Part shown: piece after piece, positions 26,510 through 56,819 of the stretch
Position numbering within the stretch: the stretch's first letter is position 1
How the letters are laid out: each line of letters begins with the position of its first letter
Assembly (NCBI GenBank): GCA_016220095.1
Contig: JACRIJ010000048.1
Span: forward strand, 5,296 to 69,295
Direction of reading: 5' to 3'
Origin: Planctomycetota bacterium
Lineage (GTDB): Bacteria; Planctomycetota; MHYJ01; JACQXL01; JACRIJ01
Length of the DNA: 64,000 nt
Program-made: the position numbers and the translations under genes
Notes under the pieces: model-generated
The model's input: the letters and a program-made list of their open reading frames with translations, nothing else
Told to the model about the DNA's origin: nothing
Databases searched by the model: none

Positions 26510-26569
26510 GGCTAATCAGCCGTCCCGCCGTCAAATTACACAGAACCGCACAGATTACGACGAAGGAGG
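26510..26569. repeat. Dispersed repeat family R2 (ggctaatcagccgtcccgccgtcaaattacacagaaccgcacagattacgacgaaggagg)
   Basis: An inverted copy lies at 30618-30680 and a partial copy at 37731-37760. Confidence 0.8.
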
Positions 26570-32456: not shown

Positions 32457-32708
32457 GATTTGTTTTCTTTGGTTACGGCTGGTTTGTTTTGCCTTATCTT
32501 ACACTTACACTTTTTCTTTACAAAAAGAATCGTTAATGTTTAAATAGTTTTAATATGTAACTTCTACGTTTTTAGCCACGAGGGCACGAAGACACGAAGG
32601 ACGCATGTTTCAGTACAATGATTGACATTCGGCATTCTTTATGTAAATCTTCATGCCTTCGTGGCAATATATATAGTGGTTGATTTTTATTTTTTAGGAG
32701 TATTTTTT

Positions 32709-39783: not shown

Positions 39784-42700
39784 TTATTGTCTCCTGAACA
39801 GCAATACCGCGACGAGTCCGAGGAGCGTTAACAGCATATATATATAAGAAGCCCTATTGTCTTGAGATGCCATTTGGGTTACAAAGCAGGCCGGTTGTGT
39901 GAGTTTACTGCCGGAATCCGAACTGTTGTCGGAAACCTGCGGATTCGGCGTTACCGGGTCAGGGGTTACCACGGGGTCCTGGCCGCCTGTTCCGGGATCC
40001 GGCTGGGTTGTTTTATTTGTAACGACTACCGTAACATAGCTTACGGCGCTGTAGTCAACCGCGTCGCTGACTGTAAGTTTGAACTTATAATTTCCGTTTA
40101 CCGTGGGGGTAAAAGACGGCTCCGGGGTGTCGGCATTGTAGAGTTCAATAACAGGGCCTTCCAACTGCGTCCAGCTGAACAGCAGGCCGTTTGAATAACC
40201 GGCTACTCCGTCCGAGTCGGTATCTGAATCATAGCTTCCCGAGCCATCCAGAGCTACCTGTTTTCCGGGTTTCGTGCTGATGGAATCACCGGCATTGGCG
40301 ACCGGCAGGTTATTTCCCTGCGGATTCAGCACGCTGTCAAAATCGTCTATTATTACAGTCACATTATCGTATGCCTGCACGGAATTCTGGTCTGTAACGG
40401 TCAATTGGAATTCATACAATCCCCTTGCCGGCGGCGCGAATTTAGGCGCTGAACTTGCGGCATCGTCAAGTGTAACGGAAATGCCGGTTTTCTGTTGCCA
40501 TAAGAAAGACAGGGAGCCGGCGCCGGTGCTTGTGTAACCGATAAGCGTTACGACAGGCATGTCATACATGTTAACGATACTGTCGCCGTCGGGATCTGTT
40601 TCAGGCGACACGAATGCCTCGGCAACAGGGAATTCGTCCGCAGTCTGCGGCACAACGTAAATCGTTATCTCGTCCGGCACGCCCCAGGCGGTTCCGTCAT
40701 TGACGGACAATTTATAAATCAAAGTGCCCGTTTCAGCGGCCGTAAAGGACAATATCTTATCCGTGCCAGCCTGAGACCCTGATAACGCGTTTTCTGTCTG
40801 CAGGAGTTCCCATTTATATGTCAAAGCATCGTTGTCCGGGTCAGAGCTGAAGCCTGCGTCAAGCGTAACAGTCTGTCCCAGGGTATATCTTGTGGCTGAA
40901 GTTGTAATCACGGCGGAAGGCATATGATTGGACGGGCTGTTCGCGTAAACTGACACGTAAGAAGTCATGCCAGGCGCATTGTCATCGTCCGTGACGTCCA
41001 GAGAGAAATAATAAACTCCGGTAGTTGCCGGTACAAAGGCGGCTATGGCGCCGTTACTGCTGTTTAATGTCAGGGTTTCGCTTGGGCCGCTGAGGTATTG
41101 CCACAAGTAGGTCTTTATATTGCCATCGTCATCCCTGCTCGTTGAACCGTCAAGGTAAACCGTAGTGCCGGTTACAGCGTTCCTGTCCGGACCCGCGCAA
41201 GCGAGCGGAGGCATATTGGTATCTTGAACCGCTATCGTTACATCAGCCGGCGAAGACAGGTTGATGCCGTCGGAAACAACCAATGAGAAATTGAATACGC
41301 CGCTTAATCCTGTTGTATCAAACACGGGTTTATCTGTCGCAGTGCTGTCAAGATTAGGATGGAACGTCCAGTTATACGTGAGAGCATCGCCGTTAGCGTC
41401 GTAAGAACCGCCGGCGTCAAGGGTAACCAAATCACCTTCGGTCACCGTTGTTGTTTTTTCGTTACTGATAACAGCCACGGGACTGACGTTATTTATTTTA
41501 ATTGTAACGGAATCAGGGGCGCTTGAAATGGCGCCTTCTTTTATTATAAGCTGGAAGACATATTCGCCTGTGGCCTTGCCCGTGAAAGACGGTGTTGAAG
41601 TGGAAGAACTGTTCAACACAACTTCCGGGCCTGACACCTGCGACCACTGGTAAATGATTCCGGTTTTGGTGCCGGTGGTATTGGTGCTTTTTGTGCCGTC
41701 AAGGGTGATAACGCTGGGGTCGGAGGTTTTATCCGAGCCGGCATTTGCGGCCGGGACTGCTCCCGTGTATTCATAACCGTTCGCTAATGTAACTGCGGCC
41801 TGAGACGGGCTTGTTATTACGACATTCACCTTTCCTGTATATCCTGAAGGGGTATAGCCGGTGAATACCGTACTGCTGACGAAAGTTACGCCTGTTGCGG
41901 GACTGCCGCCGAAGGTAATTGTTGAGCCGGATTCAAAATTCGTGCCTGTTATCGTAAAAAAGATATTGCCCGCGACACTGCCGTTATTCGGCGCAATGGA
42001 AGTTATTGTCGGCGGGGAGATATACGTAAACCCGTTCTGGCTGGTATAGCTCTGGCCGTCCGGGTTGGTTATAGTTACGTTAGCCTGGCCGAGCGTACCG
42101 TTCGGCGTTACTGCCGTGACAGCAGACGTGGAAACAACAGTCACGCTTGTTGCGGAACTGCTTCCGATTTTGAGGGTCAAACCGTTCTGGAAATTATATC
42201 CGCTGACCGTTATGCTGGTGCCGCCGCTTGAAACGCCGGAAGCGGGAGATATTAGCGCAATAGCCGGCGCTGTGGACAGGTCGTAAGAAAAACCCGCTGT
42301 CAGGGTAACGGCCTGCGAATCCGGATTAGTAACGGTCACATTTACGGTAGAGGCGACCGCCACGGCCGGCGTTAAGCAGGTTATGGTTGACGAATTAACG
42401 ACAGTTACGCTTGTGGCATTATTCGGTCCTATTTTAACGATAAGGCCGTTTGAAAAATTATTGCCCGAGATAGTCAGAGACGTACCGCCTGCAATCGGGC
42501 CGTGCGTAGGCGATACTGATGTTATCTGCGGAGACGGCAGGGCATTATATGTAAAACCGTTGGTCAGAAGGCCGTACTGCGTATCGGTATTAACGGCTTT
42601 AATCGTAACGGTTCCTGCGTTTCCGGCAGGTGAGAAACAGGTGATAGTGTTTGAATCCACACGCGTAACATTAGAAGCCGCGTTAGCGCCGAAAAATACG

Positions 42701-45700
42701 GCCACGCCGCTATTGAAGTTGCTTCCGGATATCGTGCACGAAGTGCCGCCTGTCACAAAGCCGTTATCAGGGCTGACAGACGTTATCTGCGGCACGGGCA
42801 GTGAATTATACGTATATCCGTTGAACAAAATATAATATTGCGCGTCGGTATTGACCACTTTAATTGAAACTGCACCGGCGTTTCCGGCAGGGGAAGAACA
42901 TGTTATGGTATTTGCATCCACGCGTACAACGCTCGCGGCCGCGTTAGCGCCGAAAAATACGGTTACGCCGCTGTTGAAATTGTTTCCCGCGATGGTGCAC
43001 GAGGTGCCGCCTGCCATAAGGCCGTTATCCGGGGTGATGGAAGTTATCTGCGGCGCCGGCGGCGCGTTGTATGTAAAGCCGTTAAACAGCAGGTCATATT
43101 GCGTGTCCGGATTGACGACCTTGACGGGAACTGCGCCGATACTGCCTGCCGGCGAGGAGCACGTAATGGAGGTGGAATCCACCCATGTTACAAGCAATGC
43201 CGGATTGGCGCCGAAGAACACGGTTGCGCCGTTTTTGAAATCCGTGCCCGTGATAGTGCATGGCGTATTTCCTGCGACATCGCCGTTATCAGGCGCTATG
43301 GAAATTATGTTCGGCATGGCTACGGGCTGGAACGTAAAACCGTTCGTAAGGGTTCCGGCAAGAGTGGAGGGATTGGTAACAACGACATTCACTCCTCCTA
43401 TGGTGCCGGACGGCGTGGTGCACGTAATAGACGTGCTGTTTACAACAGTTACGCCGGTAGCGCTGTTCGCGCCGATTTTCACCGTCGCGCCGGAGACGAA
43501 ATTAGTGCCTGTGATTGTCACAGAATCGCCGCCGTCGGAAGTGCCCGTATTCGGGGCTATTGATGAAACCGTGGGGCTGTTGGCGTAAACAAAGCCGTTA
43601 GTAAGAATATTATACTGTGTATCGGGATTTACGACTTTTATGTCATATGTGCCGGCGCTTTTTGCAGGCGCGGTAAAGGTCAGTGAAGAAGAACTGACGA
43701 ATGTCACGCCGGAGATGGAAGTAGTCCCGAAGAAAACGGAACAGCCGGAGACAAAATTCGTGCCTGAAATGGCGACAGAAGCGCCGCCGGCGATATCGGA
43801 TGCGGACGGAGCCGCAGAAGTTACGGAAGGCGCCGGGTCTGTGAAATACGTGAAACCGTTTGTCAATGACGCAGACTGCGGACCGGGAACTGTTACGGTA
43901 ACGGTCGCGTTTCCCGCGGCTCCTGAAGGCGCAGTGCAGGTTATTGTCAAAGCATTAACGACAATGATATTTGTCGCGAGGACTCCGCCGAAAGTGACCG
44001 TCGTGGCGGGATTGTCAATGAAATTAGTTCCCGTTACGGTAACGTTGGTTCCGCCGGTTGACGGTCCCTGGTTTGGCGAAACCGAGACAACCGTTATAGG
44101 AGTAGAAACCGTATATCTCCAGAAAGAGTAATTCGTATTACTGCTTCCGGCTATGGCAAAAATTGAGCCGTTGTAGTAGTTCAAGGATGCGCCGTCGTAG
44201 AAATAACCGAGATCTGCCGCAGACGCGTCGTCCCAAGTATTCAGGCTTATGGTGTACCTGTAATACCCCAGAGAACCGTTGCCGGCGACGGCAAAAATGT
44301 AATCGCCTGTTCCGGTGCATGCAAGCGAACCGCCTATGTTGACAGTACCCGGGAGATTAGCGCGTGCCAGCCAGGAATCTCCGGAAATAGAATATCTCCA
44401 GAACTCATTTACTCCGGAGCCGCGCAATACATAAATATAATCGCCTGTGCCGGGATATGCCATATCCGCCCCGTTTCCAGGAACATTGGTTATCGGAGTC
44501 CGGACGTCCCAGCTATTGGTTGCGATGGTATATCTCCAGAAATCATTAACACTTCCCTGGAGCAAATAAACATAAGTGCCTGTCGCGGTCATTGCCGCGC
44601 CGGTATTCACTAATCCCGGAACCGGTGCCATGGAAGTCCACGTGTTAAGGGATATTGAATACCTGTAGAAATCTGTTGTATTAGAACAGCGGGCGGCGTA
44701 AAGATAATCGCCTGTGCCCGGATAAGCTATTGCCCCTGCGGTAGCAATAGCCGCGGGCGTGCTTGCAAGGAATTTCCACGTATTGGTGCTGATATCATAG
44801 GCATTGAAATAAGAAGTGCTGGCTCCCCTCAGCGCATAGATGGAAGAACCCGCAATCTCGGAATCGCCGCCTGTGCCAGCCGTGAAATTTGTCTGGGAAA
44901 TGGAATTCCAGCTTAATCTTGAAGTGGAGAATCTCCATAATTCCTGAGTATTGGCGGCCCTGAAGGCATAGATGTAATCTGAATTCCCTATGGATACGAG
45001 GGTGGCATTGGTGCTTATTGTATTGGGAGGATACGATGTAGCCTGCCAATTCTGATTAATCAGGGAATATCTCCAGAAAGATTGATTGCCATTCCCCTGG
45101 AAGGCATACAGGTATTCGCTGTCGGAATTATGGAATTGCAAATAGCCGCCTGCGACAACATTGCCCGGCGCGGATGCTAATACCGTCCAGGTGTTGCCGG
45201 AAATGGAATATCTCCAGAAATCAGCCGTGGTACTGCCGTGGAAAGCGTAGATATAATCCCCTGAGCCGGGGTACGCGAGATAGCCGCCGTCAGTTACGGT
45301 AGCAGGCGCAGATGCCGGCGTGGTATTGTCCCATGTATTGGTGCCCGTGTCATAGGTCATAAATTCCGATTGGGTATTGCCCTGGAAGAAATACAGTTTA
45401 GTGCCCACGCGAACGGCGGAGGCGCCCGCGCTTAAATTTACCGGCGCATCCGCGTAAGAGGCGTCATTCCAGGAATTGCCTGAAATGGAATATCCCCAGA
45501 AAGTAGCCGTGTTGTTGGCTCTCGCGCAGTATATGATATCGCCGGACCCCGGATACAAAAGAACGGAGCCGGTGGATATTGTTCCCAATGTAACGGCAAG
45601 GGTCGAGTGCGTATTTGTAGAAATAATATATTTAGAAAAAGTTGTTGAATTGTTGCCATTCGTATAATATATCGTATCATTGCCGTCCCATTGAGCCCTT

Positions 45701-48700
45701 CCGCCCGTGCTCATCACCGCAGGCAAGAGAGCGGGTTCGGTCCAGACATTTGCCTGGATGTATCTGAAAGCGGCCCTGAGTGTGGCGGTTTGCACGTCGG
45801 GATTAGTAACCGTTACAGAAGCGGCCCATGCGGTGCCGGCGGGCGTCAGGCAGGTCAGCGTTTGCGAATTCACAAACGCAACGCTGGTCGCGGATGTGCC
45901 GCCGATTGTAACTGTTGCGCCGTTTACGAAATTATAGCCTTTGATTGTAACGGACGATTTTCCTGCGGACACGCCTTCTTCCGGAGTAATGGATGTTACA
46001 TAAGGTTTACTTACGAATGTCACGGCATTAGAAGAGGTATAAGTCAGGGAACCGTTACTGACCGTAATATCCGACAGTCCCAGAACGCCTGCGGGAACGA
46101 CGACCTCCAACCTCGTTGAATTTATAAAAGTAACGCTTGTGGCATTTATGGCGCCAAATTTGACCGTTGTAGTCGGGGTGAAATTAGAACCGTAGATTAC
46201 AATAGTCATTCCTCCGTTTACGGGAATGGTTGTCGGGAAGACCGTTGTAATTGAAGGAGTAAGGCCTTCAAAAAGAAGCCTGTATCTCGCAAAATACAGG
46301 CCGCCGCCTCCATTTATAGCGTACAAGTAATTATCATTTCCGTATGTCAAAAATCCGCCGGTTGAATAGGTGTAAGGGGCCGATGAAAGCGAAACCCAGG
46401 ACTTTGTAGTCTTGTAATATCCCCAAAACCCGGTCGTTGTATTGCCTTGAAGCGCATATATTACATCGCCATATCCGGGCCATGCCATGTCAAAACCGGA
46501 CGTCTCAGCAAATGGAACCGATGACTCTATAAGCCAGGTATTTGAAGCAATGTCATACGAATAGAAACCGGTCTGGGAATTACCAACCGACAAATATATT
46601 TTTCCATTGCTGTAACACAAAGCGCCGCCGTCGTTTACCACAAATGGCGTGGTTGCGAGGGATTCCCACTTGTTCTGGGATATGACATATCTCCAGAAAT
46701 ATAGTGTTCCGCCGCCGCCCGTCGCGTAGATGTAATCGCCGGTTCCGGGATAAACCGAATCCGCTCCGTAGCCGACAATGGTTGGCGCATCAGTCAAAGA
46801 AGTCCAAACGTTCGTTGTCATGTTGAATTTTGCAAATGAACTACTGCCATAACCTCTTAGGGCATATAAATAAGTAGAATCCACCTGCGTTAAGGATGAT
46901 CCATAATAAGTTCCCCAGGGCGTGGCGGTCATGGTAGTTGCGGTGTTGGCTGTGATATCATATTTATAAAAATTGGTTCCACCCTGCCCGTACATTACGT
47001 AAATCTTTTTATCGGTTGTTCCGCATATATTGCCATAGCTCATAGAACTGGGAATCGGCGTAAGCTTGGACCATTTCTGGCTCGCGAGATAATACTTGAA
47101 AACATATTGAGTGCTCTGAGCCGGGATCAGCATAATGGCATTCAGGCTTGCGATGTAGGCCATTTTGCCGCATTGATATACGCCTACAGGCGTGGCGGTC
47201 AAACTTGTCCAGCTGTTGCCTGTAATATTATAACGGGCAAAACCCGTAGTGTTGGAGCCCTGCGTACAGTAAATATACCCGTCGTTACCGTATGCCTGAT
47301 AAGCGCCGTAATAAGTTGAAAACGGCATATTTGCCATTTGCAGCCAGGAGTTTCCGGAGATGGAATACCTGTAATAGGTATTCGTATTATTGTGAGTCAC
47401 ATATATAAAATCGCCTGAACCCGGATAGTTGCCGCTTGCGCCGTAATTAAAAGTTGCGGTGAAATTAGTCATTGCCAGCCAGCTGTTGCCGGAAATCGAA
47501 TACCTTAGAAACGTATTCGTGTTGCCTCCCGGGGCGCAATAGATAAAGTCGCCCGAACCGGGATAAACCAGAAAACCTCCCGTAGTTACGTTACTGGTGC
47601 AGGCAGTCATTGTGTCCCAGGTATTTGGTCCGATATTGTAACGGTAAAATGTACTGGTGCCGCCGCCTCTTGTCAGATACAAGGCGGTTGTTGAAGGCAC
47701 ATATACCATATCAGCCCCGATGCCGCCTGTTGTTGTTACGGGCGTAAGTAATGTATAGGCATTTGAGGTAAACGAATATTTATAGAAGGCTGAAGAACTT
47801 CCAGGATAAGGCCAGAAATACGTGAAATCCCCTGTGCCGGGATAGCAGAGCGTTAAACCCTGATAGGCATTTACGGGAAGCAGGGCCATCTCGTTCCATG
47901 AATTCACGGCTTCAAATTCAAAATAATTCGTCAATGTCGCGTTCTGTAAATCCGGATTGGCGACGGTCAGGCTGGCAATCGCAAGGCCGGACGGCGCGGT
48001 GCAGGTTATCGTAAAGGGGTCAACTACCAGTACTCCCGTGGCGGAAACGCCTCCGACAGATACGGTTGCCCCGCTCACAAAATTTGCCCCGGTTATGGTA
48101 ATCGGAGTACCGCCGCTTGCCACCAAAATCTGCGGCGTTGCGGAAGTCAAATACGGTTTGCTATCGTAAGTGAAGCCGCCGACAAGGGTGGACGTCTTGG
48201 TATTAGGATTCGTTATTACCACATTGGCGGCGCCTGCTGAACCGGCCGGAATCGTCACAGTCAGGCTGATAGAACTGTTGAAAACTATGTTGGTCGCGGC
48301 CTGGCCTCCAAATGTGAGCGTAAGCCCGGGATAAAAACCGGTACCTGTAATAGACACCGGACTGTTGCCGGAAGTAGGCCCTGTTGATGGATTAATCAGC
48401 GATATTGACGGCGTTGCGCCTGAATCCAAGACGCAGTATTTCGTGATGTACGGGGTGTTATTGCCGACTAATGAATAAATATAATCATTTACTCTCGCAA
48501 AATCAGTAACCTGATAGTATTTGAAAGGCGTATTGGTCAGCGTTGTCCATGCATTAGTGGTTGTGGAATAATACCACCAGGCGTGATTTGTCGTGCTTGA
48601 CGGGCCGTAATTTGCACCGGTGGCATAAATTTTATCGCCAAACCCGGCATAAACCATTTGAGGGTAATACCCGAAAGTTGACGGGGCATTTGCCAATTGC

Positions 48701-51700
48701 GTCCATGCATTCAGGGAAATAGAATACTTATAAAAAGTCTGCTGGCCGTTTGAACCGAACATGTACATGAAATCGCCCGTGCCGGGATAATGCAGGCCGC
48801 CTCCGTAGTTAAGAGTGGCGGATAAAGAGGACATTACAGACCATGAATTTGAAGTAATATCATATTTATAGAAATCGCTGGAACTGCTGGCCCGCGCGCA
48901 ATATATGGCGTTTGCGGACGATACGTAAGCCAATCCGGCGCCGTAAGACGCGGTGTTTGGAAGCGCTGTCATCGTGTCCCAGGTATTTGTGGAAATAGTA
49001 TATCTGTAAAATGTTGTTGTCGCCGTTCCGCGCATCAAATAAATCTTATCCGTGCCGGCCAGCACCATATCCGCGCCGTAATTCACGGTGGCAGGTATGG
49101 CGGCTAAGGTTGCCCAGGTATCGGTGGCAGTGGTGTATTTCCAGAAATTCGTAGTGCTTGCGCCGCCGCATACGTATAAATTGGCTGAACCGTCATACAA
49201 TATATTTCCGCCTTCAGCTATTGATGCCGGGGCCGGGGCCACATCAACCCAGTTGTTTCTGGAAACGGAATACCTTACAAAATCCCTCTGGTAATATGCG
49301 GGCATGGAGTACAGATAATCGGAATTGGAAATGGAAAGCAATGTCCCGCCTTCCCAGTTATACGACATTGGCTGAGGTTGCATGGTTTCCCACGAATTAA
49401 GCCCCATGGAATAACGATAGAAGTACGCGCCGCTGCTAGTGGCATTTCCGCGTAATAGATAAAAGTAATTTGTCCCGTACGCCCATGCAAGCGAACCGCC
49501 GTACCGGATGGTGTTGGGCGTTGATGGCAACGTCTCCCACGTATTGCCGGCAATGGAATATCTCCAGAAATCCGTAGTATTGGCCCCGCGCGTGGCATAC
49601 AGGTAATCGCCCTGGCCGGGCCATACCAGGTCGCATCCGCCTTCCTGCTCGTTCGGGGTGCTGGCCAATTGGGCCCATGTATTGCCGGAAATTGAATATC
49701 TCAACAAGAGCTTTCTGTTTGCCGAAATACTGGCGTGGGTGCCTAATGTCGCGTAAATGTAATCGCCGCCTAACCATGCCATTGAACATCCGTAGTCCGC
49801 CAGGTATGTCGCGTTAAGAACTGTCGTATCCTGGGGGTCAACATCGTTCCACGTATCAGTAGATATCTTGTATCTCCAGAAGATGCCGGTCTGATTGCCC
49901 CTGAAGACATAGATATAGTCACCGTTCGCGAAACACATGCTTGAAGCGCGGTATAATAACGTTCCGCCGGGCGTGGTCGCGCAAACCGTCCATACGTTTG
50001 TTGACAGGCTGTATTTCCATAAAGTCGTAGTATTGTCTCCACGCAAGGCATAAATAGTATCTGCGCCGTCATAAGCCATTGCCGAGCCGTCATTAAACCA
50101 ATTGGGCGCGCAGGCAGGCGTATCCCACCCGTCCACGCTTACATATCTGAAAGCAGTTTTTAAAGAACCGTTGAAAGGGCCGGGATTGGTTACGGTTAGA
50201 TCCACGGACCAGGTATTGCCGGTTCCGGCCGGTGTCGCGCAGGTAATGCTCGTTGAGCTGACCCTGACGACGTTAGTGGCGGAATTCGCCCCGAATTTAA
50301 CCGTCACTCCAACCGCAAAATTCTCGCCTGTTATGGTAGCGTTAGTGCCGCCGGTATAAGAACCCGAATATGGCGATACTGATTTTACGATAGGATCGGT
50401 CTTGTAGGTAAACCCTCCTGTAAGCGTATTGGAAAGAGGGCCTGGGTTGGTAACAACCACATTCGCGGCCCCGGCTACTCCGGCCGGTGCGGCCGCGCTG
50501 ATTAAACCGGTATCCAGGAAAGCAACGTTCACAGCCGCAACGCCGCCGATAGTAACCGTTGCAGTCGGATAAAAATTCTTGCCGATTATCTTAACCGTGG
50601 TCCCGCCGGCCGTGCCGCCTTCATTAGGGAATATGGCTTCAGCCGTTGGAGTTGAACTTTCAAAAACCTTGTATCTGAAGAAAGATGCCGTGGTATTGCC
50701 GGCAAAACAATAGATATAATCGTTGGCGAATGTTAACGATATTCCGACATTATTAAACGTAAATGGCGAAGAACCCATTGTTGCCCATGTGTTGGTCGTC
50801 ATATTGTAACGATAGAATTCGGCCGTATTCTGGCCTCTCGTGGCATAAAGATAATTGCCGTATTTAGGATATATGAGCGCTCCACCGGACCCTATTGTGG
50901 CCGGAGTGGAAGCGAGAACGCTCCAAGTATTGCCGGAAATGGAATATCTCCAGAATTCGGAAGTGGCCGCGCCGCGCAGGGCATAGATATAATCTCCGGT
51001 GCCCGGATACGAAAGCGATGCGCCGGCCTCAACTACATTAGGCGTAAGCGCAAGCTGAGACCATGAATTTCCGGAAATGGAATATCTCCAGAAACTTGAG
51101 AAACTGCCGCCGCGAAAGGCGTAAATGAAATCGCCGGTTCCTGGATATAACAAAAATCCGCCGGTAGTTACCGTTCCGGGCGTTGAAGTCATGGTGGACC
51201 ATGAATTTGAGCCGACCGTGTATTTCCAGAAATTAGATGTGGAATTGCCGGCCATTACAAAAAGATTGGTGCCGTCGGAACAGATAGCGCCGCCTGCGCC
51301 GATAGTCCCGGTCGGCTGGGCCAGGCCAGTATTCCATGTGCCCGCGGACGTGTCATAGCGCCAGAAATCCGCCGTAGTACTGCCTCTAAGCGCATAAATA
51401 TAATTTCCCGAGCCGTAATACGACAATGAACCGCCTGCAGTGATTGTATTGGGCGCGGCAGGAATTGCACCCCACCTGTTATTGCTGATGGAATACCTTA
51501 AAACAGTATAACCCCAGTTTCCCTGATTAAAATAGAACCAATCAGTGCCGGGAACGTACACTATATCTGCGCCGCCTGCTGTGGATATCGGCACATTTGC
51601 CATATCGGACCAGGTTGTGGTGGAAATCCGATATTTTTTGAAACCATTGCTCGGCCAATTCGTACAATAAGCGTAAACATAATCGGGGTCAGACCCGAAT

Positions 51701-52416
51701 ATAAGGTCGCCTTCCGTTGTTACCGCTGTAGGCGAAACAGTGAGAGCCCCCCAGGAATTTCCGGAAATGGAATATCTCCAGAAATCCGTGGTATTGGCGC
51801 CGCGCAAGGCATAGATGTAATCGCCGGAACCCGGATACGCCAGAGCGCCGCCGGTATTGACAGCGCCGAGAGCAACCGCCTGCGCGCCTGACCATGTGTT
51901 ACTGCCAATATCATAATAGTAAAACGCGGTGCCATTGCCTATAAGGCAGTATATTCTGTTATTGGAACTGACATAAACAACATCGCTTCCGGCACTGACT
52001 GCCACGGGTATGGCCGCGCACGGAGACCATGCATTGCCGGATATGGAGTATTTTTGAAATCCTGTGGCGCCATCCCCCTGCGTCGCGTAAATAAAATCTC
52101 CACCGCCCCAGCACATAGAACCGTAACTGGGAATGCCCCAGGGACTGCCGGTAACCGAGGTGTAAGTTCTACTGCTGATAGTGTACTTGTAAAATTGAGA
52201 ACCGCCGCCGCCTTGCGTTATAAATAATGTGTCCGCTCCGGCCGCGGTTATTTGTGAACCGTAGTACGTTTGCAGAGGACAGGACGGCGGTTCTTCCCAC
52301 CCTACCTGCGCGTAAAGCTCTGCGGGAATAAAAAAGGCCATTGCAAAAATAAATAATGCAATAACCCATTTGTTTGTAATCGCCGCTGTTTTAAGATTTT
52401 TTGTGCGCATAAACAT
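39784..52416 (-). CDS. Giant cell-surface protein (4210 aa) built from beta-propeller blade repeats, many IPT/TIG domains, PKD-like domains and a C-terminal membrane anchor
   Basis: A signal peptide is followed by about 50-aa blade repeats (GxGDYIYAxRGxxxxxFWRYSISGNSW). More than 20 IPT/TIG units are present (e.g. PNEGGTAGGTTVKIIGKNFYPTATVTIGG). Five PKD-like units follow (ANAGSDKT...YQWSQVSGP). The C-terminus is a hydrophobic helix plus RRQ. Confidence 0.85.
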   Translation of the reverse strand: MFMRTKNLKTAAITNKWVIALFIFAMAFFIPAELYAQVGWEEPPSCPLQTYYGSQITAAGADTLFITQGGGGSQFYKYTISSRTYTSVTGSPWGIPSYGSMCWGGGDFIYATQGDGATGFQKYSISGNAWSPCAAIPVAVSAGSDVVYVSSNNRIYCLIGNGTAFYYYDIGSNTWSGAQAVALGAVNTGGALAYPGSGDYIYALRGANTTDFWRYSISGNSWGALTVSPTAVTTEGDLIFGSDPDYVYAYCTNWPSNGFKKYRISTTTWSDMANVPISTAGGADIVYVPGTDWFYFNQGNWGYTVLRYSISNNRWGAIPAAPNTITAGGSLSYYGSGNYIYALRGSTTADFWRYDTSAGTWNTGLAQPTGTIGAGGAICSDGTNLFVMAGNSTSNFWKYTVGSNSWSTMTSTPGTVTTGGFLLYPGTGDFIYAFRGGSFSSFWRYSISGNSWSQLALTPNVVEAGASLSYPGTGDYIYALRGAATSEFWRYSISGNTWSVLASTPATIGSGGALIYPKYGNYLYATRGQNTAEFYRYNMTTNTWATMGSSPFTFNNVGISLTFANDYIYCFAGNTTASFFRYKVFESSTPTAEAIFPNEGGTAGGTTVKIIGKNFYPTATVTIGGVAAVNVAFLDTGLISAAAPAGVAGAANVVVTNPGPLSNTLTGGFTYKTDPIVKSVSPYSGSYTGGTNATITGENFAVGVTVKFGANSATNVVRVSSTSITCATPAGTGNTWSVDLTVTNPGPFNGSLKTAFRYVSVDGWDTPACAPNWFNDGSAMAYDGADTIYALRGDNTTTLWKYSLSTNVWTVCATTPGGTLLYRASSMCFANGDYIYVFRGNQTGIFWRYKISTDTWNDVDPQDTTVLNATYLADYGCSMAWLGGDYIYATLGTHASISANRKLLLRYSISGNTWAQLASTPNEQEGGCDLVWPGQGDYLYATRGANTTDFWRYSIAGNTWETLPSTPNTIRYGGSLAWAYGTNYFYLLRGNATSSGAYFYRYSMGLNSWETMQPQPMSYNWEGGTLLSISNSDYLYSMPAYYQRDFVRYSVSRNNWVDVAPAPASIAEGGNILYDGSANLYVCGGASTTNFWKYTTATDTWATLAAIPATVNYGADMVLAGTDKIYLMRGTATTTFYRYTISTNTWDTMTALPNTASYGAGLAYVSSANAIYCARASSSSDFYKYDITSNSWSVMSSLSATLNYGGGLHYPGTGDFMYMFGSNGQQTFYKYSISLNAWTQLANAPSTFGYYPQMVYAGFGDKIYATGANYGPSSTTNHAWWYYSTTTNAWTTLTNTPFKYYQVTDFARVNDYIYSLVGNNTPYITKYCVLDSGATPSISLINPSTGPTSGNSPVSITGTGFYPGLTLTFGGQAATNIVFNSSISLTVTIPAGSAGAANVVITNPNTKTSTLVGGFTYDSKPYLTSATPQILVASGGTPITITGANFVSGATVSVGGVSATGVLVVDPFTITCTAPSGLAIASLTVANPDLQNATLTNYFEFEAVNSWNEMALLPVNAYQGLTLCYPGTGDFTYFWPYPGSSSAFYKYSFTSNAYTLLTPVTTTGGIGADMVYVPSTTALYLTRGGGTSTFYRYNIGPNTWDTMTACTSNVTTGGFLVYPGSGDFIYCAPGGNTNTFLRYSISGNSWLAMTNFTATFNYGASGNYPGSGDFIYVTHNNTNTYYRYSISGNSWLQMANMPFSTYYGAYQAYGNDGYIYCTQGSNTTGFARYNITGNSWTSLTATPVGVYQCGKMAYIASLNAIMLIPAQSTQYVFKYYLASQKWSKLTPIPSSMSYGNICGTTDKKIYVMYGQGGTNFYKYDITANTATTMTATPWGTYYGSSLTQVDSTYLYALRGYGSSSFAKFNMTTNVWTSLTDAPTIVGYGADSVYPGTGDYIYATGGGGTLYFWRYVISQNKWESLATTPFVVNDGGALCYSNGKIYLSVGNSQTGFYSYDIASNTWLIESSVPFAETSGFDMAWPGYGDVIYALQGNTTTGFWGYYKTTKSWVSLSSAPYTYSTGGFLTYGNDNYLYAINGGGGLYFARYRLLFEGLTPSITTVFPTTIPVNGGMTIVIYGSNFTPTTTVKFGAINATSVTFINSTRLEVVVPAGVLGLSDITVSNGSLTYTSSNAVTFVSKPYVTSITPEEGVSAGKSSVTIKGYNFVNGATVTIGGTSATSVAFVNSQTLTCLTPAGTAWAASVTVTNPDVQTATLRAAFRYIQANVWTEPALLPAVMSTGGRAQWDGNDTIYYTNGNNSTTFSKYIISTNTHSTLAVTLGTISTGSVLLYPGSGDIIYCARANNTATFWGYSISGNSWNDASYADAPVNLSAGASAVRVGTKLYFFQGNTQSEFMTYDTGTNTWDNTTPASAPATVTDGGYLAYPGSGDYIYAFHGSTTADFWRYSISGNTWTVLASAPGNVVAGGYLQFHNSDSEYLYAFQGNGNQSFWRYSLINQNWQATSYPPNTISTNATLVSIGNSDYIYAFRAANTQELWRFSTSRLSWNSISQTNFTAGTGGDSEIAGSSIYALRGASTSYFNAYDISTNTWKFLASTPAAIATAGAIAYPGTGDYLYAARCSNTTDFYRYSISLNTWTSMAPVPGLVNTGAAMTATGTYVYLLQGSVNDFWRYTIATNSWDVRTPITNVPGNGADMAYPGTGDYIYVLRGSGVNEFWRYSISGDSWLARANLPGTVNIGGSLACTGTGDYIFAVAGNGSLGYYRYTISLNTWDDASAADLGYFYDGASLNYYNGSIFAIAGSSNTNYSFWRYTVSTPITVVSVSPNQGPSTGGTNVTVTGTNFIDNPATTVTFGGVLATNIIVVNALTITCTAPSGAAGNATVTVTVPGPQSASLTNGFTYFTDPAPSVTSAAPSASDIAGGASVAISGTNFVSGCSVFFGTTSISGVTFVSSSSLTFTAPAKSAGTYDIKVVNPDTQYNILTNGFVYANSPTVSSIAPNTGTSDGGDSVTITGTNFVSGATVKIGANSATGVTVVNSTSITCTTPSGTIGGVNVVVTNPSTLAGTLTNGFTFQPVAMPNIISIAPDNGDVAGNTPCTITGTDFKNGATVFFGANPALLVTWVDSTSITCSSPAGSIGAVPVKVVNPDTQYDLLFNGFTYNAPPAPQITSITPDNGLMAGGTSCTIAGNNFNSGVTVFFGANAAASVVRVDANTITCSSPAGNAGAVSIKVVNTDAQYYILFNGYTYNSLPVPQITSVSPDNGFVTGGTSCTISGSNFNSGVAVFFGANAASNVTRVDSNTITCFSPAGNAGTVTIKAVNTDTQYGLLTNGFTYNALPSPQITSVSPTHGPIAGGTSLTISGNNFSNGLIVKIGPNNATSVTVVNSSTITCLTPAVAVASTVNVTVTNPDSQAVTLTAGFSYDLSTAPAIALISPASGVSSGGTSITVSGYNFQNGLTLKIGSSSATSVTVVSTSAVTAVTPNGTLGQANVTITNPDGQSYTSQNGFTYISPPTITSIAPNNGSVAGNIFFTITGTNFESGSTITFGGSPATGVTFVSSTVFTGYTPSGYTGKVNVVITSPSQAAVTLANGYEYTGAVPAANAGSDKTSDPSVITLDGTKSTNTTGTKTGIIYQWSQVSGPEVVLNSSSTSTPSFTGKATGEYVFQLIIKEGAISSAPDSVTIKINNVSPVAVISNEKTTTVTEGDLVTLDAGGSYDANGDALTYNWTFHPNLDSTATDKPVFDTTGLSGVFNFSLVVSDGINLSSPADVTIAVQDTNMPPLACAGPDRNAVTGTTVYLDGSTSRDDDGNIKTYLWQYLSGPSETLTLNSSNGAIAAFVPATTGVYYFSLDVTDDDNAPGMTSYVSVYANSPSNHMPSAVITTSATRYTLGQTVTLDAGFSSDPDNDALTYKWELLQTENALSGSQAGTDKILSFTAAETGTLIYKLSVNDGTAWGVPDEITIYVVPQTADEFPVAEAFVSPETDPDGDSIVNMYDMPVVTLIGYTSTGAGSLSFLWQQKTGISVTLDDAASSAPKFAPPARGLYEFQLTVTDQNSVQAYDNVTVIIDDFDSVLNPQGNNLPVANAGDSISTKPGKQVALDGSGSYDSDTDSDGVAGYSNGLLFSWTQLEGPVIELYNADTPEPSFTPTVNGNYKFKLTVSDAVDYSAVSYVTVVVTNKTTQPDPGTGGQDPVVTPDPVTPNPQVSDNSSDSGSKLTQPACFVTQMASQDNRASYIYMLLTLLGLVAVLLFRRQ

Positions 52417-52440
52417 TTCTCCAATTTATTTTCGCGTTAC

Positions 52441-52576
52441 GAAAAACCGCACCACTGCGAAGAAGGATGCGGGACAGCACGTAAGGGAACTGCCCTGCCG
52501 CACTCTTCCCCGGCCTATCCCGTTGTTGTCCGGAACAGGCCGTTCAGTGCATGTGCAGAGATTGTGTTGTGTTTCA
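52441..52576 (-). ncRNA. Conserved structured 3' element downstream of small-protein paralog 1, possibly an attenuator in front of the giant gene
   Basis: It is about 85% identical to 53851-53961. It forms two hairpins with compensatory and wobble changes between copies, and a T5 tract follows. Confidence 0.4.
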
Positions 52577-52792
52577 TTATAATTCCGTCTTCTGCCAGCC
52601 AACAAGGTATCCGTCCGTAAAAATATAGCGTTCTTTCATGTTGCCGCTGACATGCGAATAAATCCATTCCTCATGCCTCGCGGAATTCCTGTTGCTGGCC
52701 GTCCTGACCTCTTTGGCCATGGGCTTGCCGCGTACGCATAAAATGTCCTCGGTCGTAAACGGCGGACAACATATTTTTAAGTCTTTATTCAT
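52577..52792 (-). CDS. Small 71-aa protein, paralog 1, sigma-54-dependent, unknown function
   Basis: The sequence is MNKDLKICCPPFTTEDILCVRGKPMAKEV...YIFTDGYLVGWQKTEL. It is about 80% identical to the 53962-54180 product. It has the RBS GGAGG. Confidence 0.6.
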   Translation of the reverse strand: MNKDLKICCPPFTTEDILCVRGKPMAKEVRTASNRNSARHEEWIYSHVSGNMKERYIFTDGYLVGWQKTEL

Positions 52793-52841
52793 ATATATTC
52801 CTCCAGAAATAATGCAAAACCTTCTCTATAATATAGTATAA

Positions 52842-52857
52842 CGCAAATGCAGTGCCA
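52842..52857 (-). promoter_or_regulatory. Sigma-54 promoter of small-protein paralog 1
   Basis: The minus strand reads TGGCACtgcatTTGC with the GG-N10-GC spacing. It lies about 50 nt upstream of the ATG. Confidence 0.65.
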
Positions 52858-52968
52858 TAGCGCTTAATAAGGCAAAAGCAGGCGCTATCTCTAACACGCT
52901 GTTTGTCAACATGTTGTGGCGGCGGCAAAGGGCCGGTTTTTAGGGGTTTTACGGCAGATGTGCTAAAA

Positions 52969-52997
52969 TTCATACAGATGGATAATTTTTCATACAG
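52969..52997 (-). promoter_or_regulatory. Putative enhancer/UAS direct repeat TTCATACA-N13-TTCATACA
   Basis: It lies about 115 bp upstream of the sigma-54 promoter. The same motif sits at the same distance upstream of paralog 2. Confidence 0.45.
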
Positions 52998-53850
52998 AAG
53001 CGTTGAAATGCAGGGTAACCAGGATATGCCGGCGTTATTTTGCAGCAAGGGACGATTTTTACAACAGATTGAACAGATTAAACGGATTGACGACTACGAC
53101 TAAACAACGAAACAATCCGGACGATGAAACGAAACCACAGATTTTACAAGATTAACACACACATTCGCTCTGCGCAATGCAGGCAAGATTGCGACGACGT
53201 ATCCTGGGTATCCTGTACATCCGATGCAGATAACGGCGCGTTTACGAACGGTTATTTACATGGCAAAACATATATACTTAGCGTGCTTAACGGCCTTTGC
53301 GGGCAAAACGTCGTTCGCTCTAACGGCGACGATTCAACCGCAAAGCAAGTTTACCCTGAGCGGAGCGAAGGGCAAAGTACGCTAAGACGATGCGAATATC
53401 CGTCGTCTTTGCGTTCTTTGCGGTCTTAGCGGTTTATTTCGGTCGTCGTACGTCCGAGCCGCCGACGAACGCAATAAGCCGCAGAGGACGTCAAGAGCGC
53501 CAAGTGACTTGACGAAAGTAGAAGTTGAGACTTAAGACTATAAAGCAGCATAGCCGCAACCAAAACGACTACACGATTATTTGCCACGAAGGCACGAGGT
53601 CACGAAGAATGACGAACGACTATGCCAATTAGCCACAGAGCGCACAGGGAGCGCGGAAAACCATATGACATTCCAATAAATTACTTGAAAAAAGGTGTTC
53701 CCCTTCGTAAAATTCTAAAATCTTCCAATCTTGGAATTTTCTAATCTTGGAATCCGTAAAGTGATTTTCGACATTCGCCCCGGCACCCGGATCTTGGCTC
53801 TCGGCCGTCGTTCTCCCTCCTTCGTTTTCTCTTCTTCCTCCTCATAAAAG

Positions 53851-53961
53851 AAGAGTGCAGGACAGCCCGTAAGAGAACTGCCCTGCCTTGATCTTCCCCG
53901 GCCTATTCCGTTGTTGTCCGGAATAGCCCGTTTAGTGTATGTGTAGAGGTTGTGTTGTGTT
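53851..53961 (-). ncRNA. Conserved structured 3' element downstream of paralog 2
   Basis: One hairpin is CTATTCCG-gacaacaa-CGGAATAG and a second is GCAGGGCAG...CTGTCCTGC. It is homologous to 52441-52576. Confidence 0.4.
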
Positions 53962-54180
53962 TTACTGTAATTCCGTCTTCTGCCAGCCTACAAGATATCC
54001 GTCCGTGAAAATGTATTTTTCTTTCGTATTGCCGTTAACGTGCGAATAAATCCATTCCTCCTGCTTTGCGGAATTCCTGTTATTGATAATCCTGACCTCT
54101 TTGGCCATGGGTTTGCCGCGTACGCATAAAACATCCTCGGTCGTGAACGGCGGACAAGATACTTTTGATTCTTTGTTCAT
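53962..54180 (-). CDS. Small 72-aa protein, paralog 2, sigma-54-dependent, unknown function
   Basis: The sequence is MNKESKVSCPPFTTEDVLCVRGKPMAKEVRIINNRNSAKQEEWIYSHVNGNTKEKYIFTDGYLVGWQKTELQ. It has the RBS GGAGG. Confidence 0.6.
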   Translation of the reverse strand: MNKESKVSCPPFTTEDVLCVRGKPMAKEVRIINNRNSAKQEEWIYSHVNGNTKEKYIFTDGYLVGWQKTELQ

Positions 54181-54228
54181 GATTCCTCCGGAAACAATTC
54201 AAGATTCTCTCTGCTATTCTCTTTACAC

Positions 54229-54243
54229 GCAAAAATAATGCCA
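54229..54243 (-). promoter_or_regulatory. Sigma-54 promoter of small-protein paralog 2
   Basis: The minus strand reads TGGCATtatttTTGC with the GG-N10-GC spacing. Confidence 0.55.
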
Positions 54244-54346
54244 TTAAAATGAAAAAAACAAACACTGGCGTGTCGTTATAACGGATTGATTATCAAGGTG
54301 TTGCGTTGGCGGAAGAAGTGCGCCTTTCATACCTCAATTAAACGGG

Positions 54347-54374
54347 TGTAGTAAAATTCATACATGTGATTGAA
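54347..54374 (-). promoter_or_regulatory. Putative UAS direct repeat TTCATACA-N13-TTCATACC
   Basis: It is a homolog of 52969-52997. A third half-site lies at 54313. Confidence 0.45.
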
Positions 54375-54406
54375 TTTTCATACCTGGAAATGAATTTACA
54401 TAATTC

Positions 54407-56407
54407 TTAATTCGTTAAAGTAATTATTCCCAACAGGCGCAGTTTCCTGTACAATGCCGACCTGTTATATTTCAACGTTCGCGCGGCCTGGACGATATTG
54501 CCGTTGCATTTGCGGAGTGTTTCCGTCAGGACCTGCTTCTCAAACGCGTCTCTTAATTCCTTAAAACTCGTTTGGCCTGTTGTTTGCGCGGGTTCCTGTG
54601 GCCTGTAGGCGTTAATGACCGGAGAGAACATCGGTGTTTCTAACAGAACCGATTCCTTATTCAGGGCGCAGATCCTTTTTATTTCGTTTTTCATCTCGCG
54701 TATATTGCCCGGCCAATTATAATTGACGGCCGTTGTCAGGGCCTCCTGCGTGATTTCCATGGGCCGGCCGGTTAAAGTATATTTCACAAGGAAATATTTC
54801 AATAACAGCGTTATGTCTTCCCTGCGTTCCCTTAAGGCGGGCAGGTTGATCATGATGGCGTTTATCCGGTAATACAAATCCTCCCGGAACATTTTTTTTC
54901 TCACCAATTCTTCAATATTCTGATTGCTCGCGAAAATAAAACGCGTATTTATCGGGACCGGGTTTTCCGCGCCGATGCGCCAGACCTGTTTTTCTTCAAG
55001 CACGCGCAGTAATTTCTGCTGGATTTTCAAAGACATGTCCGCGATTTCGTCCATGAAAAGCGTGCCGTTGGAAGCCAGTTCAACGTAGCCTTTTTTGACT
55101 TCCACGGCGCCCGTGAACGCGCCTTTGGTATGGCCGAAAAGTTCGCTTTCCACGAGGGATTCCGTCAGGGCGCCGCAATTGAACGCCAGCCAATTCTCAT
55201 TCTTGCGCAGGCTGTTCTGGTGCAGGGCTGAGGCGATGAGTTCTTTGCCGGTGCCGGTTTCGCCCTGGATAAGCACGGGCAGGTCGGTCGGCGCGATTTT
55301 TTCCAGTATCTTGAAAACATCCTGCATTGCCGTGGACGTTCCTATGATATCCCTGTACGGCGAATTTTCATACTTCGTGTTTATCGTATTTTTCAACACC
55401 TCAGGCAGGTCAACTAAACCGGACTGTTTCTGCGGAGTCACCGACTGCAGACGACGGAAAAGCTGTTCCAATTCCCGGCTCTTTTCATAAAGCCAGACCA
55501 CGTCCAATTTGTTAAGGACCGGTTTGATCCTGCGTTCGGCCGCGGCGGCCTTATCGGGCATGTTCTTCAGGAAATAGCATTTGCTCAGAAGAAGTTCGGA
55601 TTCCGCGTAGATGTAAGTAATCTTTGCCTGCCCGGATTCTTTTTTTATGGCAAGCAGTTCTTTTATGGCCTCATCAACGTGCGATTCCAACATGTCCATG
55701 ACTGCAAAATGGATCCTGGCTTCAAGGGCGCCTGTCAGAAAATTCTTCTGGTTGCTGAAGTCCACGCATTCTTTAAAGACGGCCTTTGCCCCGGCATAGT
55801 CGTTGACCGCCATCAGGTATTCGCCCTTTAAATGATTGTGATCCAGCGGAAAAAATCCGAGACTGCTGTCGTCTTTGAAAGCGCCTAATTTATCGTAGAT
55901 GATATCCCTGACTTTCGGCAATTCCGCGTTATGGAGATAGCAATATGCGAGGCAGACGAACGTATAGATATACGTCATCTTATCCATAGGGAATTCGCCG
56001 TAGCCGTATTTTTCAAAGTAGTCCTCGGCCTTTTTGAGATTTTGGATTGCCGGGCCTATATTTTTCAGGAGCATGAGATTGCTTCCGATTTCGCAGGAAA
56101 CGTATACGCTCTTAGCCAATGGGAAATGGTGCCTGGACGCCAATAGAGAGGCCTTGTAATACATGTCAATCGCGCGTGAAAATTCTATGAGGTTGTAATA
56201 TATGCGGCCCATATTGCAATAGAATCCGAACTCCTTTTCCGGGCTGAAGGAGAGCAGTGGCATTTTTTTCAGGGCATCTTCCCCGCAGGCCTTTGCCTTC
56301 ACGAAGTTGCTTTCCCGTATGAATTGGGCTATAAGCCCGTCATAATAATCCAGAGTTTGGTTTTTCATAGGTTTGCTGTATTTTATCAATTGATTTCTGT
56401 TTGTCAA
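54407..56407 (-). CDS. Sigma-54-dependent transcriptional activator with an N-terminal TPR-like sensor domain and no receiver domain
   Basis: 666 aa. It carries GETGTGKE, ESELFGHTKGAFTGA and a C-terminal Fis-type HTH. The track start is a TTG codon, and an in-frame ATG at 56368 is the more likely start. Confidence 0.85.
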   Translation of the reverse strand: MTNRNQLIKYSKPMKNQTLDYYDGLIAQFIRESNFVKAKACGEDALKKMPLLSFSPEKEFGFYCNMGRIYYNLIEFSRAIDMYYKASLLASRHHFPLAKSVYVSCEIGSNLMLLKNIGPAIQNLKKAEDYFEKYGYGEFPMDKMTYIYTFVCLAYCYLHNAELPKVRDIIYDKLGAFKDDSSLGFFPLDHNHLKGEYLMAVNDYAGAKAVFKECVDFSNQKNFLTGALEARIHFAVMDMLESHVDEAIKELLAIKKESGQAKITYIYAESELLLSKCYFLKNMPDKAAAAERRIKPVLNKLDVVWLYEKSRELEQLFRRLQSVTPQKQSGLVDLPEVLKNTINTKYENSPYRDIIGTSTAMQDVFKILEKIAPTDLPVLIQGETGTGKELIASALHQNSLRKNENWLAFNCGALTESLVESELFGHTKGAFTGAVEVKKGYVELASNGTLFMDEIADMSLKIQQKLLRVLEEKQVWRIGAENPVPINTRFIFASNQNIEELVRKKMFREDLYYRINAIMINLPALRERREDITLLLKYFLVKYTLTGRPMEITQEALTTAVNYNWPGNIREMKNEIKRICALNKESVLLETPMFSPVINAYRPQEPAQTTGQTSFKELRDAFEKQVLTETLRKCNGNIVQAARTLKYNRSALYRKLRLLGIITLTN

Positions 56408-56745
56408 TAAATATTGAAGAATTGAATAAGCGGACAGTGAATGACGGCGAAATCAACAGGGGCTCTAAGAGACTTTAAAGAGACTGACGACGAGCCCTGA
56501 ACAACAGATTGAACAGATTAAACGGATTGACGACTACGACTAAACGACTGAACAACCGGACGACGGGATGAAACCATATAAAGAAGAAGGCAGTAAGAAG
56601 GCAGGCTGACGCACCGTTCGTCGTCCGTCGTTCAACTGTCGCCTGTTCACATATCACCTTTCGTCGTCGTCCCTCGCTACTCGTTACTGGCTACTCGCTA
56701 CTTCGTCCATCCGTCCTTCATTCTTCATTCTTCATACTTCGTAAG

Positions 56746-56819
<74 letters not shown>

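Follow-up and report, generated by a model that had tools for sequence, protein, structure and literature searches.

The 64,000-nucleotide (nt) stretch of contig JACRIJ010000048.1 from an uncultured Planctomycetota bacterium that was analyzed here, referred to as the window, carries on its minus strand two paralogous small genes, each of which is followed directly after its stop codon by a 115-nt structured element. The original prediction, made from the sequence of the window alone, had described this element as a conserved RNA with two hairpins and as a candidate attenuator, processing site or small RNA (sRNA) derived from a 3' untranslated region (3'UTR). As judged from evolutionary constraint and thermodynamics, the element is a discrete, constrained and strand-specific RNA module under selection. 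Its possible role as the 3' end of the small-gene mRNA, and in one copy as an attenuator of a giant surface-protein gene, is weighed below against several alternatives.

Organization of the locus

All relevant genes lie on the minus strand, to which the coordinates below refer unless stated otherwise, and follow one another from 5' to 3' as a tRNA-Arg gene, an activator gene, small gene copy 2, a spacer of about 850 nt, small gene copy 1 and the giant gene. The activator gene (54407..56368) encodes a sigma-54 enhancer-binding protein that combines a TPR-like N-terminal domain with an AAA+ domain carrying the GAFTGA motif and a Fis-type helix-turn-helix (PF00158, 223 bits; PF02954, 44 bits). 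Small gene copy 2 (53962..54180) encodes a protein of 72 amino acids (aa) and copy 1 (52577..52792) one of 71 aa. The giant gene (39784..52416, 12.6 kb) specifies a surface protein of 4,210 aa with 15 IPT/TIG domains, PKD domains and Kelch propellers. Its start is probably the second ATG, at 52410, which lies 8 nt 3' of a GGAG and opens a product (MRTKNLK...) whose N-terminus resembles a signal peptide; the list of open reading frames (ORFs) uses the first ATG, at 52416, which stands only 2 nt 3' of that GGAG. In the 160-nt gap between small gene copy 1 and the giant gene, a scan of the minus strand detected no sigma-70-like or other promoter-like site.

The small genes belong to a duplicated unit with a period of 1388 nt. 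Each unit opens with two GTATGAAWWTT repeats, continues with a promoter and the small gene, and ends at position 52460 (copy 1) or 53848 (copy 2). No credible gene or ORF was found in the roughly 850 nt 3' of the copy 2 element (52996-53846). As originally described, the copy 1 element sits between the small gene and the 4,210-aa ORF. The only other public copy of the element is found on the Logan contig L001, an ortholog of the copy 2 locus that carries the activator gene 5' of the small gene. L001 is a single contig with 145 nt remaining 3' of the element, and this remainder contains no ORF.

Boundaries and structure of the element

The module spans 52459-52573 in copy 1 and 53847-53961 in copy 2, and 98 of its 115 positions are identical, which matches the 85% identity first reported 3' of the two stop codons. 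It is set off from the stop codon by a variable linker of 3-6 nt and consists, from 5' to 3', of a 31-nt CA-rich tract, hairpin 1, a bipartite hairpin 2 and a pyrimidine tract. Paralog homology (the repeat starts at 52460) and ortholog homology both break off just past the outer stem of hairpin 2, with similarity between copy 2 and L001 lost within about 20 nt past this hairpin. The interval that had been proposed for copy 1, 52441-52576, contains the whole module but is too wide, as paralog homology ends at 52459/52460 and positions 52441-52458, including a run of five T, are specific to copy 1.

In copy 1, the CA-rich, G-poor tract AACACAACACAAUCUCUGCACAUGCACUGAA (52543..52573) begins 3 nt past the stop codon and is predicted to be unpaired (own fold -3.1 kcal/mol, z -1.4). 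It leads into hairpin 1 (52511..52542), a 12-bp stem with two G-U pairs and the 8-nt loop GACAACAA (-22.4 kcal/mol, z -6.83). Hairpin 2 (52459..52508) is built from an outer GAAGA/UCUUC stem of 4-5 bp, an internal loop, a G+C-rich 12-bp inner stem with an A.C and a U.U mismatch, a 6-nt loop and the pyrimidine tail CCUUCUUC (-21.1 kcal/mol, z -3.54). Only copy 1 continues with a mini-hairpin, CGCAGUGGUGCG, and U5 (52442..52460), which matches a terminator-like pattern in a scan (52460-52447). This mini-hairpin is terminator-like, yet it is unconserved and its stability is not significant (-5.0 kcal/mol, z -1.08). The T5 run, at 52442-52446, is indeed confined to copy 1, where it lies outside the conserved module.

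In copy 2, the CA-rich tract (53931..53961) adjoins the stop codon directly and is free of G, hairpin 1 (53899..53930) has 3+8 bp flanking a G.G mismatch and an 8-nt loop identical to that of copy 1 (-18.5 kcal/mol, z -6.49), and hairpin 2 (53847..53896) combines a 5-bp outer stem with a perfect 12-bp inner stem (-24.8 kcal/mol, z -4.55). The terminator-like scan flags this hairpin 2 (53886-53857, 12 pairs, 7 of them G-C). The tails that follow hairpin 2 read ACUCUUCUUUUAU in copy 2, AUCCUUCUUCGC in copy 1 and ACUCUUCUUCGA in L001. Across all three known copies, the first 12 nt of the CA tract and the loop of hairpin 1 are invariant. The stems quoted in the original prediction are recovered as parts of these larger helices: CUGUUCCG/CGGGAUAG of copy 1 and CUAUUCCG/CGGAAUAG of copy 2 belong to the 12-bp stem of hairpin 1, and GCAGGGCAG.../...CUGUCC(C/U)GC belongs to hairpin 2, with its 12-bp stem and 5-bp GAAGA/UCUUC outer stem.

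Folding of the element depends strongly on the strand. Relative to dinucleotide shuffles, the whole element reaches z -4.26 (copy 1) and -8.95 (copy 2) in the sense direction, compared with -0.65 and -3.35 in the antisense direction. The single hairpins also stand out from shuffled sequences, with z -6.8 and -6.5 for hairpin 1 and, over all three copies, z -3.5, -4.6 and -5.1 for hairpin 2, whose energies including the outer stem range from -21 to -25.6 kcal/mol. The asymmetry arises because G-U pairs, of which hairpin 2 has three invariant ones and the element as a whole up to three additional variable ones, become C.A mismatches on the other strand. This sense-only, G-U-driven stability indicates an RNA transcribed in the direction of the gene and speaks against a DNA palindrome.

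Two refinements of the fold were considered and rejected. A third helix that would join both hairpins into a three-way junction, followed in copy 1 by U5, is present in minimum-free-energy (MFE) folds, and pairing between the tract and the flank does not exceed that obtained when the flanks are shuffled (p = 0.14, 0.21, 0.85). A register shift of hairpin 2 in copy 1 was examined as a form of compensation, and the hairpin is equally stable in the register of copy 2 (-21.4 vs -21.1 kcal/mol).

Evidence for selection

Comparison of the two paralogs is not sufficient to demonstrate selection. The element differs at 14.8% of positions and the third-codon positions of the small ORF at 23.9%, a difference that is not significant (p = 0.12), so that paralog identity alone proves nothing. 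The decisive comparison is that of copy 2 with its ortholog on L001, where the element shows 2 differences in 115 positions, as against 58 in 366 third-codon positions (16%; p = 8e-6), 21 in 144 fourfold-degenerate sites (p = 2.5e-4) and 36 in 209 upstream intergenic positions (p = 7e-6). Among 776 windows of 115 nt in the coding sequence of the activator, none has two or fewer differences and the minimum is four. Constraint spans paired and unpaired positions alike: the CA tract is unchanged at all 31 positions (P = 0.005 at the neutral rate), and all unpaired positions together show at most one change in 57 (P = 6e-4).

The substitutions that separate the paralogs also preserve the fold to an extent that random changes rarely do. 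When 17 random substitutions (13 transitions and 4 transversions, matching the number of paralog differences) are introduced into copy 2, the MFE rises from -46.5 to a mean of -30.9 +/- 5.9 kcal/mol, compared with -49.8 kcal/mol for the real copy 1, and only 0.17% of the simulated mutants are as stable as copy 1; in the reverse direction, the proportion is 5.7%.

The claim that compensatory base changes support the hairpins did not survive closer inspection, as two-sided changes occur in 0 of 35 pairs of the RNAalifold structure and 0 of 29 pairs of the structure described here. Changes that preserve pairing are one-sided wobbles at three pairs (A-U/G-U twice in hairpin 1 and G-C/G-U once in the outer stem) and therefore provide no evidence of covariation. 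In addition, pairing is broken in four instances: a G.G mismatch interrupts hairpin 1 in both copy 2 and L001, and hairpin 2 of copy 1 contains an A.C and a U.U. As only three public copies exist, the structure is not provable by covariation and the case rests on constraint and thermodynamics. Selection at the RNA level, as first proposed, is thus upheld by the strand-specific stability, the ortholog constraint and the structure-preserving paralog substitutions, and not by the wobble and compensation argument with which it had been introduced.

Promoters, small proteins and the operon module

A sigma-54 motif of the form TGGCAC/T-N5-TTGC lies about 50 nt 5' of the ATG of each small gene. Specifically, the -24/-12 promoter of copy 1 reads TGGCAC-TGCAT-TTGC (52843..52857) and that of copy 2 TGGCAT-TATTT-TTGC (54229..54243), the latter being identical in L001. 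Further upstream, two GTATGAAWWTT repeats form a putative activator-binding site in each copy, at 52959..52995 for copy 1, about 105-140 nt 5' of the -24 element, and at 54347..54383 for copy 2, where they are identical in L001 amid diverged intergenic DNA. The two repeat pairs are spaced 1388 nt apart, matching the spacing of the gene copies. The sequence hence contains the features that define a sigma-54-dependent unit, namely a GG-N10-GC promoter, a nearby GAFTGA activator and upstream activator sites, and by these signals copies 1 and 2 are predicted sigma-54-driven genes.

The motif is rare. It occurs three times in the 64 kb, always on the minus strand, and is found 5' of the small gene in 8 of 8 related loci examined. 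The third occurrence, TTGGCACGCAGGTTGCAT at 19738-19752 (minus strand), lies 5' of 19131-19568 and just 3' of a gene for a response-regulator-type sigma-54 activator (20137-21507). It heads the flagellar flgB-flgC-fliE-fliF operon, a textbook sigma-54 target, and serves as a positive control for calling sigma-54 promoters in this genome.

That the small ORFs are genuine genes is indicated by a Shine-Dalgarno sequence, by paralog differences that number 4, 9 and 17 at the three codon positions, and by seven synonymous codon changes as against one non-synonymous change between copy 2 and its ortholog. A profile search among 5.8 billion clusters assembled a family of 17 members, all from planctomycete metagenome-assembled genomes or metagenomes. 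The family has no Pfam assignment, its Pfam matches being below threshold. Its members comprise 66-103 aa, lack a signal peptide and share the motif CPPL[ST]xxD[IV]LxLRGxPxxK...EEWxYY...EHYxFxNGRLVxW. An AlphaFold model (pLDDT, the predicted local distance difference test, 84) resembles BLIP, OsmE and BamE-type protein-interaction domains. The idea that the small protein is an RNA-binding autoregulator found no support, as the predicted fold does not resemble those of RNA binders.

In every related locus with enough context, the gene order is the same, with a TPR-type sigma-54 activator gene followed by a sigma-54 promoter, the small gene and a gene for a large surface protein. This module recurs in at least eight loci, comprising the window (52796-56407) and loci L004, L005, L006, L007, L008, L010 and L011. 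Promoters of the relatives are TCTGGCACGCTATTTGC-like, and their large surface proteins carry RCC1, Big_1, TIG or Kelch domains. The distance from the small to the large gene is 0 nt in L006 and 14 nt in L004, and the two overlap in L010, L011 and L005. As the genes thus usually adjoin or overlap each other in these relatives, they are assigned to one predicted operon.

Distribution of the element

Public sequence data contain only three copies of the element. Within the 64-kb window, no copies exist beyond the two gene-linked ones, and when 5.8 billion proteins were searched and clusters looked up, the matches were confined to the two small genes of the window and a single Logan contig. Protein-guided scans of genome and metagenome collections found no relative, and neither an exact-pattern scan of both collections for the core of hairpin 1 nor two-pattern scans of viral contigs gave a match. 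Rfam 15 contains no family that matches the element on either strand (cmscan of 51000-55500 at E <= 10, with three chance hits elsewhere in that region), and a literature search on this module in Planctomycetes found nothing relevant. The many unrelated intergenic sites expected of a dispersed repeat, such as a repetitive extragenic palindrome (REP) or a miniature inverted-repeat transposable element (MITE), were not found in the 64 kb or in the genome, metagenome and viral collections.

Conservation of the hairpins in other genomes, whose absence had been named as a refutation, gives a divided answer: they are near-perfectly conserved in the one close relative, L001, and absent from seven more distant loci, representing six family members, that share the gene module (as judged by eye and with a covariance model built from the three copies). 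Since these relatives lack the element and both paralogs have it, the 160-nt structured spacer is, on present sequences, best described as having arisen in one narrow lineage, before the local duplication took place.

A proposed 3'-end module and attenuator

The reading preferred here, with a probability of roughly 0.45, is that the element may be a lineage-specific structured 3' end of the small-gene mRNA, which would combine a leaky terminator with a protective hairpin and, in copy 1, would also attenuate the giant gene. In this model, sigma-54 polymerase, activated by the TPR-type activator encoded just upstream, would start about 50 nt 5' of each small gene. Past the stop codon, the transcript would present the unpaired CA tract, the stable 12-bp hairpin 1, the long bipartite hairpin 2 and the pyrimidine tract CUUCUU. 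Hairpin 2, together with the weak U-tract behind it, would serve either as a leaky intrinsic terminator or as a site of 3'-end formation, and hairpins 1 and 2 would shield the short small-gene mRNA from 3' exonucleases. In copy 2 and its ortholog, the element would simply terminate the transcript, whereas in copy 1 polymerases that read through would enter the 12.6-kb surface-protein gene. As no promoter for the giant gene is found in the 160-nt gap, this gene would depend on read-through, and the element, as an intra-operon attenuator, would keep the ratio of the small protein to the giant one high, although both come from one sigma-54 operon. Hairpin 2 provides the stable G+C-rich stem-loop that characterizes intrinsic terminators (12-bp stem, 7 G-C pairs, z -3.5 to -5.1), and the loss of both paralog and ortholog homology at the end of this hairpin would fit a transcript 3' end there. 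Because copy 2 and the ortholog keep the element with no gene following it, the element serves the transcript of the small gene rather than acting as a leader of the adhesin gene.

Several observations weigh against this reading. The tail of hairpin 2, CUUCUUC/U, is a poor U-tract, and clear terminators of the window have 7-8 uninterrupted U (26804-26771 and 4205-4187). When the terminator-like scan was applied to both copies, hairpin 2 of copy 1 was not flagged, and that of copy 2 was flagged under lenient criteria. Covariation is absent, with no two-sided change in 29 pairs, in a set of three sequences, two of them nearly identical, that confers almost no power on such a test. The seven more distant loci have the same gene module and manage without the element. 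Finally, the conservation of the unpaired tract and loops (at most one change in 57, P = 6e-4) exceeds the needs of a plain terminator or stabilizer. This suggests an additional sequence-specific partner, protein or RNA, and keeps alive the idea of a 3'UTR-derived regulatory RNA or protein platform.

According to that idea, termination together with processing near the stop codon would free a module of about 115 nt as a sigma-54-controlled regulatory RNA or protein sponge, in which the CA tract and the ACAACAA loop would pair with targets or titrate an RNA-binding protein. It accounts well for the constraint on unpaired positions, including the invariant 12 nt and loop, and for the retention of the element on the orphan copy 2 and its ortholog. 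A conserved, predicted single-stranded segment lies 5' of the terminal hairpins, where a seed would be expected, and the layout of an unstructured 5' segment, an internal hairpin and a 3' hairpin fits that of 3'UTR-derived sRNAs. On the other hand, complements of the invariant 12-mer are not above chance in the window (4 matches including 2 self-matches, with 5.8 expected), a long U-run, as is typical of Hfq-dependent sRNAs, is missing from the tail, the four paralog differences of the tract sit in its 3' half and leave a strict seed of only about 12 nt, and the element is confined to one narrow lineage. We consider such an RNA unlikely on balance. A somewhat more far-reaching version, in which an RNA or decoy derived from the small mRNA acts through the CA tract and ACAACAA loop, so that the activator of the giant protein would also emit a trans-acting RNA signal, appears rather improbable. 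The same degree of doubt applies to a processing or stability element that works without termination, where an endonuclease, for example RNase III at hairpin 2 or a single-strand RNase in the CA tract, would cut the polycistron and the hairpins would protect the small-gene part, resulting in differential decay. Counting its outer stem, hairpin 2 does amount to an irregular duplex of about 17 bp, interrupted by an internal loop, the U-tract is weak relative to the canonical terminators of this genome, the copy 1 element is intercistronic and the module boundaries match the end of hairpin 2; yet copy 2 and L001 have no downstream cistron to separate, and the same data suit termination equally.

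Two further explanations fare considerably worse. The element could be mere residue of a recent duplication with chance palindromes, or a protein-binding palindrome at the DNA level, and would then have no function as RNA. The non-significant paralog comparison, the complete lack of compensatory double changes and the near-perfect DNA inverted repeat formed by hairpin 1 of copy 2 would all agree with this. It is made very unlikely by the ortholog constraint (p = 8e-6), with an element more conserved than any stretch of the neighboring activator gene, by the mutational simulation (0.17% as stable) and by the strong strand asymmetry, as the three invariant G-U pairs of hairpin 2 are C.A on the other strand and mismatched in duplex DNA. 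Alternatively, the copy 1 element may be a cis-regulatory leader of the giant gene (riboswitch-like, a thermosensor or sequestering the ribosome-binding site), with the copy 2 element as a passenger of the duplication. The position directly 5' of the giant gene's ribosome-binding site would suit such a role, and the CUUCUU strand could in principle pair with the GGAGAA of that site, as judged by eye. However, a downstream gene is missing from two of the three copies (some 850 nt with no credible gene follow copy 2, and the 145 nt left in L001 contain no ORF), so that a consistent association with a regulated gene is lacking, and the pair formed by these very copies shows strong constraint. Moreover, the outer stem that would release the anti-Shine-Dalgarno strand is equally present in the copies without a gene, relatives with the same operon have no leader and no Rfam family matches at E <= 10, which together leave this explanation very improbable.

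Hidden coding was also considered and rejected. The +1 frame relative to the small gene is open across the element in all three copies (52426-52605 and 53790-53985, minus strand; 1475-1680 in L001), but it lacks a start codon in copy 2 and L001 and has only a TTG in copy 1, and most paralog substitutions in it change the amino acid, as judged by eye. Its openness is probably a coincidence of three similar sequences, in which about 40 stop-free codons are not unusual. An ORF of 20 codons that begins with ATG in copy 1 was likewise dismissed, as the ATG is absent from the other copies.

Surrounding features

Upstream, a tRNA-Arg(CCT) gene (56745-56819, minus strand) adjoins the locus formed by the activator, small and giant genes and could be the integration mark of a genomic island. 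The spacer at 52996-53846 consists of odd, repeat-rich DNA with purine-rich runs and terminator-like hairpins at 53574-53548 (minus strand) and 53384-53409 (plus strand), and it has no homology to the sequence 3' of the element in L001. A 77-nt segment is present twice with 89.6% identity, at 56501-56576, 5' of the activator gene, and at 53061-53137, 5' of the activator-binding repeats of copy 1. This arrangement suggests that the duplication once took in the upstream region of the activator gene, and perhaps the activator gene itself, which would later have been lost.

Many intergenic regions of the clade contain palindromic low-complexity repeats with CACGAAG/CTTCGTG-like units. These are found in the window at 19941-19995, 26020-26035 with 26484-26510, 32585-32660 and 53585-53610, as well as in L001 (960-1010), L005 (3825-3905) and L008 (4295-4400). 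In L008, a repeat of this type, which folds strongly (z -5.46), takes up the 150 nt that separate the small from the large gene; its counterpart in the orthologous L005 lies in the 5' untranslated region instead. These repeats look like a REP- or MITE-like family of mobile hairpins.

Significance

If the element acts as proposed, as a 3'-end module and attenuator, the operon would solve a stoichiometry problem by providing a 71-aa partner and a 4,210-aa surface protein from one sigma-54 promoter. A structured, partly terminating spacer of single-lineage origin would set the ratio of the two products, where relatives overlap their genes instead. The element also provides a defined candidate RNA motif for Planctomycetota, whose RNA-based regulation has hardly been explored, and if it proves to be a regulatory RNA, it would be among the first defined in this phylum. 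In terms of wider interest, the module of activator, promoter, BLIP- or BamE-like small protein and giant surface protein may outrank the RNA itself, as it offers a handle on the regulation of giant planctomycete surface proteins.

Comparison with known systems

The element shares features with three classes of bacterial RNA elements and cannot be filed as a member of any of them. Like leaky intrinsic terminators within operons, it places a G+C-rich stem-loop and a pyrimidine- or U-rich tract after an upstream cistron and before a far larger gene without its own promoter, and the expected effect is also alike, with much more of the first product than of the second. It differs from them in its interrupted CUUCUU, as opposed to the U7-U8 of the same genome, in the additional conserved hairpin and unpaired tract on its 5' side and in being known only from sequence.

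Protective stem-loops that lie between cistrons or at 3' ends confer segmental stability on mRNAs, as in the puf operon hairpins of Rhodobacter and the malE-malF REP hairpins of E. coli. Here, too, stable hairpins stand at the 3' end of the promoter-proximal cistron and the products would be needed in very different amounts. Unlike such hairpins, the element is not a dispersed repeat, either in the 64 kb or in public collections, and its sequence is conserved rather than its pairing alone.

The third class comprises enterobacterial 3'UTR-derived sRNAs of the CpxQ, SroC, DapZ and MicL type; to our knowledge, essentially no sRNAs have been characterized in Planctomycetota. In comparison with these sRNAs, the tail of the element has no long U-run, and only three copies are available. 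The architecture is nevertheless similar, as the module begins just after the stop codon, a conserved single-stranded segment precedes the hairpins and the 3' end would be shared with the parent mRNA. As with those sRNAs, expression would follow the regulator of the parent gene, which in this case would be sigma-54 together with its activator.

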